Virus record (IMG/VR): IMGVR_UViG_3300029080_000073
From: a virus
Taxonomy: Duplodnaviria; Heunggongvirae; Uroviricota; Caudoviricetes
Direction: 5' to 3' (one strand)
Length of the DNA: 21,388 nt
Below the pieces are notes generated by a model. The model searched no databases. It worked only from the letters and a program-made list of their open reading frames with translations, and was not told where the DNA came from. This document shows, piece after piece, positions 9,647-15,070 of this stretch. The stretch's first letter is position 1. Every line of letters begins with the position of its first letter. The translations under genes were made by a program, and so were the position numbers.

Positions 9647-9802
9647 TTACTCCTCAGGTTCGTAAGCTGTGAAGACAGCGACCTCCGTCTGGCCGGTTCG
9701 GATTCGTACCTCGCAGAGGTCTTTCCTCGTTACCAGTGCCGTCACTATGACGGTTAAACAGATGACGATCAGGGCGATTAACATCGCCTTTTGCTGCTTC
9801 AT
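9647..9802 (-). CDS. hok: Hok/Gef family type I toxin (51 aa)
   Basis: MKQQKAMLIALIVICLTVIVTALVTRKDLCEVRIRTGQTEVAVFTAYEPEE matches the Hok/Gef family throughout (TM helix plus conserved C-terminal tail). Confidence 0.9.
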   Translation of the reverse strand: MKQQKAMLIALIVICLTVIVTALVTRKDLCEVRIRTGQTEVAVFTAYEPEE

Positions 9803-9859
9803 AGCCTGCTTCTCCTTGCCTTTCGGCACGTAAGAGGCTAACCTACATTTGTGAGACAT
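9647..9859 (-). CDS. mok: mok-like overlapping reading frame
   Basis: In-frame upstream extension (MSHKCRLASYVPKGKEKQA) of the hok ORF, as in hok/mok/sok loci. Confidence 0.55.
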   Translation of the reverse strand: MSHKCRLASYVPKGKEKQAMKQQKAMLIALIVICLTVIVTALVTRKDLCEVRIRTGQTEVAVFTAYEPEE

Positions 9860-9975
9860 AGATTGGGCCTCAGATTAATGTTAAGCGTCTTGCAGGACGC
9901 GTAATGTTAACTGGGGCTTTTCTCTATCTGCCTTTTGGTGTTCATGCCTGAGACAGATAGCCTCAAGCACCCGCA
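9860..9975 (+). ncRNA. sok: hok mRNA leader / predicted Sok antisense RNA region (exact ends not mapped)
   Basis: Region upstream of mok carries GCUUGAGGCU-like 5' end and local hairpins expected of the hok leader; Sok would lie on the opposite strand here. Confidence 0.3.
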
Positions 9976-12943: not shown

Positions 12944-13369
12944 TCAATGCGCCACCACGGCATTTCCCGCCGGACCACCACGATTCATCTGATCGAACAA
13001 CACGATCGCTGCCGCAACAAACTCATCGATATCTTTCACCAGGCGCTCCCGTCGCTCGACAAGCTCCCGGTGATATTCCGAACTGTGGCTGCGCATTCGG
13101 GCCACCAGTGGAGGCGGCATTGCTTTTTCGATCGCCGGTAACAACGCCTGAATTTTTTTAACCGCATCAGGGGTGTCTTTTTCTACCCAGCGGAAAATTT
13201 TCTGGGTATTACGAGACAGGGCTTCCGGATGGCTGTCGTCATACAGTTCAGGAAACGTCATACCCAACTCAAAATAAGCCTGGGTTATTCCAGCTACTGG
13301 AACTTTTTCGCCATCAGGACGCGCCCAGGCATTCATCGCCATGCGGATGTGTTCATGCTTGATTTTCAT
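12944..13369 (-). CDS. YdaT-like protein (CII-position)
   Basis: N-terminus MKIKHEHI and size (141 aa) as remembered for Rac YdaT; directly downstream of the Cro-like gene. Confidence 0.55.
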   Translation of the reverse strand: MKIKHEHIRMAMNAWARPDGEKVPVAGITQAYFELGMTFPELYDDSHPEALSRNTQKIFRWVEKDTPDAVKKIQALLPAIEKAMPPPLVARMRSHSSEYHRELVERRERLVKDIDEFVAAAIVLFDQMNRGGPAGNAVVAH

Positions 13370-13625
13370 GAATCAACTCCGGTGCATTTGATGTGTTAAC
13401 CTTGAATCCAACAGGTAAACCGTCGGTTGGGTTAGGATAAATATCAGGGCGAATTTCATGCGGGGTAACTTCCCACTTCATTAGCTGACATAACGGAATT
13501 ACCTGCTTTGGGGGAACGTCAAAGCTAAACCATTGCCAAACTGTCTGTTGAGCGACCCCCATATAACGACCTATTTCAGCTTGAGTGTATTTCTGCCTAA
13601 TTTTTTCGCGAGTGCTATCTAGCAT
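13353..13625 (-). CDS. Cro/YdaS-like HTH regulator
   Basis: HTH segment QAEIGRYMGVAQQTVWQW; divergent from the repressor gene across the operator. Confidence 0.6.
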   Translation of the reverse strand: MLDSTREKIRQKYTQAEIGRYMGVAQQTVWQWFSFDVPPKQVIPLCQLMKWEVTPHEIRPDIYPNPTDGLPVGFKVNTSNAPELIHENQA

Positions 13626-13661
13626 TTTGCTCTCCTCTAAAAAACTATAAGCAAAACCTAC

Positions 13662-13696
13662 AATAAAAAACTGTACACAATCAACAGTTTTTTATT
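13662..13696. promoter_or_regulatory. operator 1: perfect 13-bp inverted repeat with 9-bp spacer in the divergent promoter region
   Basis: AATAAAAAACTGT-acacaatca-ACAGTTTTTTATT between the Cro-like and repressor genes. Confidence 0.6.
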
Positions 13697-13734
13697 GTGA
13701 TGCTTTTAACAGTATTTACCTGTAAAATTGAATA

Positions 13735-14136
13735 ATGATGAACGCCCTAGAAGTATCTATGTACAGAATCAGCAAGCTTCTTCAGGAAACTGGATGGAGC
13801 CAGGCTGAGCTTGCCCGTAGAATTGGTGTGACACAACAAACTGTTCAACAATGGGTCAGCGGTAAGGCTACACCTAAAGCCTCAAGTTTGGATAAACTGG
13901 TTGAGGTTACAGGGCATCCATTGCATTGGTTTTTATTGCCTCCTGAAGAGGGGGAGCAAATTTTCACCCCTGACACGATGAAAATTGGTCCTCGTCAACG
14001 CGAACTGCTCCAGGCTTTTAGTGCGTTTCCAGAGGAAGACCAAGAAAAAATGCTTCAAGAAATCAAAGACAAGAAAAAATCAATGGAAGAAACCATTGCC
14101 CGGTGGTTGGCGGCACAAAAAAGCCGCCGGGCGTGA
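13735..14136 (+). CDS. DicA/cI-like XRE-family HTH repressor
   Basis: HTH (SQAELARRIGVTQQTVQQWVSG) plus C-terminal region laid out as in DicA; ATG sits about 7 bp after a TAAAAT -10-like hexamer, suggesting a leaderless mRNA. Confidence 0.7.
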   Translation: MMNALEVSMYRISKLLQETGWSQAELARRIGVTQQTVQQWVSGKATPKASSLDKLVEVTGHPLHWFLLPPEEGEQIFTPDTMKIGPRQRELLQAFSAFPEEDQEKMLQEIKDKKKSMEETIARWLAAQKSRRA

Positions 14137-14163
14137 CCACAGTACAAGAAGAGGAGTTATGCC

Positions 14164-14355
14164 ATGAGTACAGCCCTTTCTCCGATAGTTTCAGAATTCG
14201 AAACTACCGAACAAGAAAACAGTTACAACGAATGGTTACGCGCTAAAGTGGCGTCAAGCCTTGCAGACCCTCGTCCCTCAATTCCACATGATGAGGTAAT
14301 GGCTGAAATGGAGAATCTTATTGCTCAAATTGCTGTAACTAACAGGAGCGAGTAA
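14164..14355 (+). CDS. type II antitoxin (ParD/RelB-like)
   Basis: 63-aa ORF whose stop overlaps the toxin start (ATGA), directly upstream of a ParE/RelE-fold toxin. Confidence 0.55.
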   Translation: MSTALSPIVSEFETTEQENSYNEWLRAKVASSLADPRPSIPHDEVMAEMENLIAQIAVTNRSE

Positions 14356-14642
14356 TGTTACCCATTTTGTGGCTACCATCTGCTCGCGATGATTTGCGTC
14401 AGATCGTAGCCTATATTGCTAAGGAAAATATTCCTGCAGCACGCAGACTAAAAATACGGATTGAAACGTCTGTTTTAGCCCTCTCTGAGCATCCATATCT
14501 ATATCCGCCAAGTGATCGAGTATCCGGTTTGCGGGAAATTGTGGTTCACCCTAATTATATCGTTTTGTACCGAGTAGCAGCTTCAAGCATTGAAATTGCA
14601 AATATTGTGCATGCCCGCCGACAATTTCCCTTCCCTATCTGA
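14355..14642 (+). CDS. type II toxin, ParE/RelE superfamily
   Basis: 95 aa; DDLRQIVAYIAKENIPAARRL ... GLREIVVHPNYIVLYRV ... IANIVHARR matches the ParE/RelE pattern. Confidence 0.7.
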   Translation: MLPILWLPSARDDLRQIVAYIAKENIPAARRLKIRIETSVLALSEHPYLYPPSDRVSGLREIVVHPNYIVLYRVAASSIEIANIVHARRQFPFPI

Positions 14643-14655
14643 ACTGAACAATTTT

Positions 14656-14688
14656 CACACCCCCTCATTCGAGGGGGTTTTTTTGTCC
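14656..14688 (+). terminator. intrinsic terminator after the toxin gene
   Basis: Stem cccctc / gaggggg with 4-nt loop followed by a 7-T run. Confidence 0.65.
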
Positions 14689-14695
14689 AACACAA

Positions 14696-14738
14696 CAATT
14701 AAAAACTGTTGACACAAAACAGTTTTTAATTGTAGATT
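14696..14738 (+). promoter_or_regulatory. operator 2 overlapping a sigma70-like promoter for the ydfA-dicB operon
   Basis: Perfect 14-bp inverted repeat CAATTAAAAACTGT-tgacacaaa-ACAGTTTTTAATTG; TTGACA (14709..14714) inside it, 17-18 bp before a TAGATT-like -10. Confidence 0.55.
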
Positions 14739-14914
14739 ATTTCCACTACCCCACCCCGCCCCACAGAACGCAGGGCAATACTTCGAGTTACCCGGCAGTG
14801 GTCAGGGGTTAAGTAGCCAGCCCGAGGCGTAAGAACATGACGGCAGGGTTCAACTTTAACTATGCAGCAGGTTTTTGTTCCGCTACCCCGGCGTTAAGGG
14901 GAAATGAGGTCAGC

Positions 14915-15070
14915 ATGGATACTATCGATCTTGGCAACAACGAATCTCTGGTGTGCGGCGTGTTTCCCAATCAGGACGGCACGTTCACCGCGATGACGTA
15001 TACCAAAAGCAAAACGCTTAAAACCGAAAATGGTGCCCGTCGCTGGCTGGAAAGAAACTCAGGTGAGTGA
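14915..15070 (+). CDS. ydfA: YdfA-like small protein (51 aa)
   Basis: Internal Met MDTIDLGNNESLVCGV... preceded by GAGGT; length and position match Qin ydfA (track ORF 14837..15070). Confidence 0.55.
   Translation: MDTIDLGNNESLVCGVFPNQDGTFTAMTYTKSKTLKTENGARRWLERNSGE

Follow-up and report, generated by a model that had tools for sequence, protein, structure and literature searches.

The 21,388-nucleotide stretch of DNA examined here, hereafter the window, is IMG/VR virus record IMGVR_UViG_3300029080_000073 (Caudoviricetes) and carries two long inverted repeats, one on either side of a gene for a helix-turn-helix (HTH) repressor. Judged from sequence comparison, these repeats are very probably operator clusters, OR and OL, belonging to a lambdoid immunity switch with the paaR-paaA-parE (CP-933M-like) arrangement, in which the operator unit is 15 bp long. 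The locus itself is the immunity region of a lambdoid Escherichia coli prophage with a toxin–antitoxin pair. An initial annotation made from the letters of the window had described the repeats as an OR-like and an OL-like pair, and this description holds: one set of sites lies in the divergent promoter region and the other at a promoter beyond the repressor operon. Its proposal that one repressor controls both promoters would also fit, by analogy, the studied homologue in prophage CP-933P (PMC8630535).

The OR inverted repeat occupies positions 13660–13698 (ACAATAAAAAACTGT-acacaatca-ACAGTTTTTTATTGT) and the OL inverted repeat positions 14695–14733 (ACAATTAAAAACTGT-tgacacaaa-ACAGTTTTTAATTGT), each with 15-bp arms and a 9-bp spacer; the OL copy can alternatively be parsed as 16-bp arms around a 7-bp spacer. 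Both repeats therefore exist where the initial annotation had placed them, with each arm 1–2 bp longer than it had given. Compared as direct copies, which lie 1,035 bp apart, the two 39-mers share 82% identity, and they are the longest perfect inverted repeats of the window (spacer of at most 15). Among 60 windows simulated with a first-order Markov model, the maximum arm was 13 bp, and 42 of the 60 had no arm of 10 bp or longer. A search with the 15-mer arm pattern, allowing three or fewer mismatches, gave seven matches where 1.6 are expected, a count that no shuffle reached. The reported overlap of the OL repeat with a TTGACA −35 element was likewise found, with TTGACA located inside the OL spacer region at 14709–14714 (tool numbering), followed by 18 bp and then TAGATT.

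The two palindromes differ at arm position 6, which is A at OR (13665 and 13693) and T at OL (14700 and 14728), so that within a palindrome the two arms agree. In EDL933-type loci (L001, 4345–4384), OL is a hybrid with one arm of each type and a 10-bp spacer. This pattern suggests arm-to-arm conversion or selection for symmetry.

Each palindrome arm is itself a dyad, ACAAT-AAAAA-ACTGT, and the operator consensus ACA(A/G)(T/G)-N5-(A/C)(C/T)TGT is a quasi-symmetric sequence of 15 bp. As a degenerate pattern, this 15-mer has exactly five matches in the 21.4-kb window, in comparison with 0.34 expected, and all of them reside at OR (starting at 13660, 13684 and 13709) or OL (starting at 14695 and 14719). 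The initial annotation had called for a genome-wide scan for more copies; such a scan adds one that it had missed, a third and unpaired 15-mer, ACAGTATTTACCTGT, at 13709–13723, which stands alone over the repressor's own promoter. The functional unit is the 15-bp operator, and each 39-bp palindrome represents two operators arranged head to head, 24 bp from centre to centre. Most likely, two dimers bind each 39-bp palindrome, with a third, weak site over PRM, the promoter of the repressor gene.

Within OR, operator O_R1 (13660–13674, ACAATAAAAAACTGT, the left arm) is located between the predicted −35 and −10 elements of PR, is invariant in 18 distinct sequences from close relatives and keeps its position in relatives down to 49% identity. 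O_R2 (13684–13698, ACAGTTTTTTATTGT, the right arm) has its centre roughly 43–44 bp upstream of the predicted starts of both PR and PRM, as estimated from the promoter hexamers. O_R3 (13709–13723, ACAGTATTTACCTGT) is the unpaired site; its final T opens the PRM −10 element, and every relative whose recognition helix (helix 3) reads TQQTVQQW has this site at −26 from the repressor ATG. At OL, O_L2 (14695–14709, ACAATTAAAAACTGT, the left arm) is immediately upstream of the PL −35 element and O_L1 (14719–14733, ACAGTTTTTAATTGT, the right arm) is between the PL −35 and −10 elements.

Two other candidate sites were rejected. The central CTGT-N9-ACAG of the palindrome, considered as a possible dimer site, has a polarity opposite to that of the conserved ACA...TGT units, and five nucleotides of its spacer are hypervariable. 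The codons for the recognition helix of the repressor (13829–13848, ACACAACAAACTGTTCAA) resemble the repressor's own operator and OL. This stretch has six rather than nine bases between ACA and TGT, and the resemblance was judged a coincidence of Gln, Thr and Val codons.

Conservation of the operators was assessed in 50 loci from viral contigs, in EDL933 and in one contig from Arsenophonus, all of which encode relatives of the repressor. The Arsenophonus locus is the only one confirmed by a scan of genome contigs with the repressor, so the diversity in this set came from viral contigs. All fetched relatives with the TQQTVQQW helix, which range from 100% to 49% repressor identity and include one Salmonella-type locus and the Arsenophonus locus, carry three 15-mers upstream of the repressor ATG. 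Their positions are −75, −51 and −26, except in the Arsenophonus locus, where they are −82, −59 and −33. The same relatives have exactly two further matches downstream, which flank TTGACA and are followed by TAGATT-like hexamers. The 21 distinct sites compared are essentially invariant in ACA and TGT and have A or G at position 4 and T or G at position 5; their five central positions, although A/T-rich, are not conserved. Among the 18 distinct OR sequences of close relatives, only 1 of 45 operator columns varies, versus 15 of 37 columns in the rest of the intergenic region (Fisher p = 1e-5).

The spacer between the OR arms behaves differently from the operators that flank it. Five of its bases (13675–13679) are hypervariable, with at least ten variants among immunity regions that are otherwise 98–100% identical, whereas the flanking operators are invariant. 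The ATCA beside these bases (TTGAT on the other strand) is kept and varies in one sequence only.

Relatives also separate the 15-mers from the larger symmetry. In loci L043, L044, L045 and L052, adjacent sites have different centres and are not mirror images, and the two OL arms of EDL933-type loci differ by one base. Start-to-start spacing between sites is 23, 24 or 25 bp among relatives, which corresponds to spacers of 8–10 bp. Because the 15-mers persist while their mirror relation and spacing vary, the 15-bp operator is the conserved functional unit. The initial annotation had held that absence of the palindromes from related immunity regions would count against its proposal; in the relatives, the operators are conserved and the extended palindromy is not.

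Another group of relatives (L048–L051), in which helix 3 reads AQQSVQKW, has none of the sites defined by the 15-mer pattern and constitutes a heteroimmune class. In these loci, whose repressor is 67% identical to that of the window, a different 15-mer, TAACTTTAWAAGTGT, is found at the equivalent promoter positions, approximately 100 nt upstream of the repressor gene and at +925 to +1000 from its start. Its two OL copies in the L048 class are direct rather than inverted repeats. A Gln-to-Lys change at the residue equivalent to Gln33 of the phage 434 repressor coincides in this class with a change of half-site position 4 to C, a covariation that is consistent with 434-like docking, as far as sequence can indicate.

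Among relatives, the distance between OR and OL is not conserved: the start of OL ranges from 465 to 1291 bp downstream of the repressor ATG. In L033 (3400–3640), and also in L036, most of paaA-parE is deleted and OL lies about 200 nt after the repressor stop codon. The toxin–antitoxin cassette is dispensable for the architecture of the switch.

The operators coincide with predicted promoters. PL is predicted on the plus strand at 14709–14738, where TTGACA (14709–14714), an 18-bp spacer and TAGATT (14733–14738) match 10 of 12 consensus positions; its hexamers are kept in relatives, and it would drive the ydfA-like early-left genes. Two 15-mers flank this TTGACA-18-TAGATT arrangement within 14695–14738, after the terminator of the repressor operon. 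The predicted PR of the Cro-like gene lies on the minus strand at 13655–13684, is homologous to PL and comprises TTGATT (13684 to 13679), 18 bp and TAGGTT (13660 to 13655). These hexamers were assigned because OL can be aligned at 80% identity with the reverse complement of OR across 44 nt, and because the spacer ATCA is kept while its neighbours vary. Placing PR as in 434, with its −35 element between O_R2 and O_R3 and its −10 element between O_R1 and O_R2, was rejected: no TAnnnT is found there, the spacer is hypervariable and TTGAT is conserved as a −35 element.

The predicted −10 element of PRM, TAAAAT (13723–13728), is followed after 6 nt by the repressor ATG at 13735 (the whole at 13723–13737, plus strand). 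This geometry is conserved in relatives and includes no Shine–Dalgarno sequence, and a leaderless repressor mRNA is therefore implied. The three OR 15-mers all fall in the 109-bp gap between the divergent genes (13625 to 13735) and overlap the predicted PR and PRM. Each of the assigned promoters has one operator near −19 and one near −43 or −44 (estimated operator centres −19/−43 for PL and −19/−44 for PRM), with O_R2 common to PR and PRM. Transcription is predicted to begin near 13648 (minus strand) from PR, at 13735 from PRM and near 14745 from PL.

The repressor (133 amino acids, 13735–14136, plus strand) is a PaaR/DicA-type analogue of CI in which Pfam HTH_3 is recognized. Its N-terminal HTH is 434-like, and a disordered linker connects this to a helical hairpin at the C terminus. 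Its best sequence match in the PDB is the N-terminal, DNA-binding domain of the 434 repressor (E = 2e-5). When GWSQAELARRIGVTQQTVQQWVSGK is aligned with 434, TQQTVQQ corresponds to TQQSIEQ and the counterparts of Gln28, Gln29 and Gln33 are conserved; in 434 co-crystals, these residues contact the ACAA half-site. An AlphaFold2 model of the repressor (mean predicted local distance difference test score 81) has a five-helix HTH at residues 4–67, a low-confidence linker at 68–85 and a helical hairpin at 86–131. A Foldseek search of the PDB matched the repressor HTH only, including 434 repressor 1pra (32% identity, root mean square deviation 1.7 Å), and gave no match for the C-terminal hairpin and no PaaR2 structure. 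The Pfam search detected no Peptidase_S24 (LexA-like autocleavage) domain in the repressor, the C terminus of which is helical.

The initial annotation had considered the 13735–14136 product to be probably DicA-like, and the protein is indeed an HTH repressor of DicA/PaaR architecture, with an HTH_3 N-terminal domain joined to a short helical C-terminal domain of about 45 residues. BLASTP aligns it with DicA over 111 residues at 28% identity (E = 2e-12). Alignment with PaaR2, the CI analogue of CP-933P, is possible only from residue 37 (residues 37–133, 42% identity); the last 48 residues are about 62% identical, as counted on the alignment, and the HTH region is not alignable.

The divergent Cro analogue (90 amino acids, 13353–13625, minus strand, Pfam YdaS_toxin) has a recognition helix, AQQTVWQW, that resembles the helix of the repressor, and its relatives keep QQ at this position. 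This QQ-containing helix, along with the fact that YdaS of CP-933P footprints the same intergenic region, would be compatible with a chief or sole role in recognition for the Cro-like YdaS, or for some other factor of the prophage, in place of the 133-residue protein. We consider this very unlikely, given that the type of site tracks helix 3 of the repressor across relatives and that the 434-like contact residues reside in the repressor. Furthermore, repressor and Cro share operators in all studied lambdoid switches, including that of CP-933P (PMC8630535).

The initial annotation had treated each 13–14 bp arm as a half-site for one dimer, so that a whole 39-bp palindrome would be a single operator for an extended dimer or a symmetric oligomer. 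At both OR and OL, the arms mirror each other perfectly along all 15 bp, which speaks for this possibility, as does the variant at arm position 6, which both arms of each palindrome share. Nevertheless, such an arrangement is very unlikely. The arm centres are 24 bp apart, which is more than two helical turns, every arm is a dyad in its own right and the 15-mer at 13709–13723 is solitary. Moreover, the four loci with non-mirror neighbours have lost the symmetry and the EDL933-type OL has lost part of it, yet the 15-mers remain, with spacers of 8–10 bp; in the heteroimmune L048 class, the two OL sites are direct repeats. Another idea, that the mirror symmetry seen in the E. coli lineage (including the non-contacted A6/T6 centres) is itself selected, through a dyad-symmetric repressor tetramer that reads A-tract direction or DNA shape or through extrusion of the AT-rich 39-bp palindrome around the −35 element as a cruciform, is highly improbable. 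If the cruciform variant were true, PR and PL would respond to supercoiling, and the prophage is one that lacks a RecA-cleavable domain in its repressor. That the palindromes act as nucleic-acid structures (cruciforms, RNA hairpins or read-through terminators) without sequence-specific protein binding is extremely improbable, for although a pattern scan flagged the OL palindrome as terminator-like and both palindromes are AT-rich and long enough for extrusion under supercoiling, the stem has only three G–C pairs, a canonical terminator lies 20 nt upstream, relatives keep the ACA/TGT ends and not stem complementarity, and the two predicted start points of transcription both have the OR copy upstream of them.

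Several points nonetheless weigh against reading the palindromes as pairs of independent 15-bp operators for the repressor. At OR as well as at OL, the two neighbouring sites of the E. coli lineage mirror each other exactly, even in centres that are not contacted, which a model of independent 15-mers does not require. The 15-mer pattern was derived from the window itself, which makes the constancy of the outer positions in relatives a partly circular finding, although the recurrence of matches at fixed positions is not circular. The proposed PR (TTGATT-18-TAGGTT) scores below the threshold of the promoter scan and PRM lacks a recognizable −35 element. The equivalent of 434 Arg43 is not conserved in the repressor and the site is 15 bp rather than 14 bp long, such that the 434 docking model may transfer inexactly. 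Finally, it is from HTH similarity and synteny that we infer which protein binds these sites.

The 15-bp operator model leads to a proposed mechanism in which one repressor dimer probably binds each operator, in competition with the YdaS/Cro-like protein. The 434-like recognition helix (Gln-Gln...Gln) would read the outer ACA(A/G) half-sites. The operators would flank the −35 and abut the −10 elements of PR, which reads leftward into the Cro-like gene, and of PL, which reads rightward into ydfA...dicB-type genes. Cooperative pairs of dimers at O_R1 and O_R2 and at O_L1 and O_L2 would occlude RNA polymerase and silence both promoters. O_R3, situated 25 bp beyond O_R2, is presumed to be a weaker site over the leaderless promoter for repressor, paaA and parE. 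As in lambda, 434 and CP-933P, PRM could be activated by repressor at O_R2 (about −44) and, when repressor is abundant, switched off by repressor at O_R3 (about −19); the latter would constitute negative autoregulation. YdaT is expected to act at the TTGATTTTCATGAATCAA site (13359–13376). The C-terminal helical domain shared with PaaR2 may also join tetramers at OR and OL into an octamer and loop the roughly 1 kb between them. Such OR–OL looping, which the initial annotation had raised, is plausible only by analogy, because PaaR2 octamerizes and the C-terminal 48 residues of the repressor resemble it.

The neighbouring genes are those of a paaR-paaA-parE locus, with an antitoxin of the PaaA2 family (paaA, 14164–14355, Pfam PaaA2, E = 1e-21) and a ParE toxin (parE, 14355–14642, Pfam ParE_toxin, E = 7e-16) encoded directly downstream of the regulator and in the same, plus-strand orientation. 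An intrinsic terminator at 14659–14686 (plus strand) closes the repressor–toxin–antitoxin operon immediately upstream of OL. Beyond PL, a DUF1391/YdfA-like gene identified by Pfam (plus strand) starts at 14837 or 14915 and ends at 15070. In the opposite direction, past the Cro analogue, a 141-residue analogue of CII (12944–13369, minus strand) belongs to the YdaT family (Pfam YdaT_toxin; PMC9986795). The junction of ydaS and ydaT, in the PRE region, contains a predicted YdaT site of the OM type, TTGATTTTCATGAATCAA, at 13359–13376, whose motif has been defined experimentally (PMC9986795). This site is a perfect TTGATT-N6-AATCAA inverted repeat and matches the high-affinity YdaT operator OM of CP-933P; a PRE-type promoter is therefore implied.

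The leader of about 100 nt that follows PL (14740–14836, CCACCCCGCCCCACAGAACGCAGGG...GGTCAGGGGTTAAGTAGCCAGCCCGAGGCG) is near-identical in a heteroimmune locus of the CP-933P type (L053, 2614–2715), and its start is also present in the L048 class. Since the leader is shared with heteroimmune loci, a mosaic junction is placed at the PL start point. The leader could be a nut-like or regulatory RNA element. At the Rfam gathering threshold, neither the operators and their surroundings nor the PL leader matched any family, and the only match elsewhere was the sok antitoxin RNA at 9797–9972 (minus strand, 120 bits), which indicates a hok/sok type I toxin–antitoxin locus in the same prophage.

The region is present at 80% coverage or more in 507 of 5,426 complete E. 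coli genomes, and the immunity type in about 500–660 of these 5,426, including the enterohaemorrhagic reference strain EDL933 and the extraintestinal pathogenic reference strain IHE3034. Within the library searched, a look for the four 15-mer strings returned no relevant paper, and experiments on this immunity type were likewise absent from it. The switch would control the ParE toxin module together with early-left genes, which in related prophages include the cell-division inhibitors dicB and kil. Its operator code (15-bp sites with 434-like half-sites, three at OR and two at OL) should permit prediction of which prophages are homoimmune and which are heteroimmune. The system also offers a natural counterpart to 434, longer by one base pair, for the study of indirect readout.

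Among the closest known systems is that of CP-933P in E. coli O157:H7, where PaaR2 is the analogue of CI, YdaS that of Cro and YdaT that of CII (Jurenas et al. 2021, PMC8630535). The same work reported electrophoretic mobility-shift assays and footprints for PaaR2, a leaderless PRM mapped by 5′ RACE, and PL with its OL operators, and it cites earlier work in which PaaR2 octamerizes in solution; the structure of YdaT is also available (PMC9986795). The window has the same order of ydaT, ydaS, OR, repressor, paaA, parE, terminator, PL/OL and conserved leader, an identical YdaT operator motif and the same leaderless geometry of −10 element, 6 nt and ATG, although the −10 element is GATAAT in CP-933P. 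The N-terminal DNA-binding domains, in contrast, are unrelated in sequence, and PaaR2 operator repeats of the GTTTAGTAA type, which are present in the CP-933P OR, do not occur in the OR of the window. For CP-933P, four inverted repeats or three operators are reported at OR and three at OL, compared with three and two here. The difference in operators and DNA-binding domains makes the two systems heteroimmune.

According to the CP-933P study, prophage CP-933M carries a homologue of the paaR2 system (PMC8630535). The EDL933 copy of the locus described here, at 1.255 Mb, encodes repressor and Cro-like proteins that are 98% identical to those of the window. Loci of the CP-933P type were located with a single published 32-nt primer (a 31-nt query stitched from two primers matched nothing), and the paaR2 locus maps at 2.125 Mb in strain PV15-279. 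Because this is a different position from that of the EDL933 copy, the window is most likely of the CP-933M (paaR1) type.

Phage 434, with its repressor, Cro and operators, is another close parallel. Its OR sites, taken from the annotated genome, follow ACAA-N6-TTGT (OR1 ACAAACTTTCTTGT, OR2 ACAATGTATCTTGT, OR3 ACAGTTTTTCTTGT), and the 434 operators are 14-bp sites in which the outer 5+5 positions are contacted, the outer 4+4 are conserved and the centre is not contacted (PMC1636474). The sites in the window share the outer ACAA/ACAG half-sites and the non-conserved, A/T-rich centre, although in each of the 21 distinct sites ACA and TGT are separated by 9 bp instead of 8. 434 OR3 (ACAGTTTTTCTTGT) and O_R2 (ACAGTTTTTTATTGT) end alike, and O_R2 is one base pair longer in its centre. 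The annotated 434 positions relative to the promoters are also similar: relative to PL, OL1 is at −18.5 and OL2 at −41.5, and relative to PRM, OR3 is at −20.5 and OR2 at −43.5. The system of the window differs from 434 in that a short helical C-terminal domain replaces the LexA-like (S24) domain, OL has two sites instead of three and PR is shifted by one operator.

The DicA/DicC system of the Qin prophage in E. coli K-12 resembles the window in its architecture of an HTH with a short C terminus, in its divergent Cro-like gene and in its repressed downstream promoter, which drives ydfA-ydfB...dicB and has an operator between its −35 and −10 elements. Qin differs in its operators, which as read from sequence are TTAG-N6-CTAA-like, and in having no paaA-parE cassette. 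Lambda likewise has a tripartite OR over divergent PR and PRM, a leaderless repressor mRNA and a second operator cluster at PL beyond an accessory cassette, which is rexAB in lambda and paaA-parE here, and its adjacent sites are also about 24 bp apart from centre to centre. It differs in a repressor fold that is unrelated beyond the HTH, in operators of 17 bp with three at OL, and in induction through RecA-mediated cleavage. The switch changes no concept, as the architecture is that of a textbook lambdoid switch and the sister system of CP-933P has already been dissected experimentally. The system of the window is a heteroimmune sibling of that published system, in which known parts are combined, namely a head like that of 434, a tail of the PaaR/DicA kind and the paaA-parE cassette.

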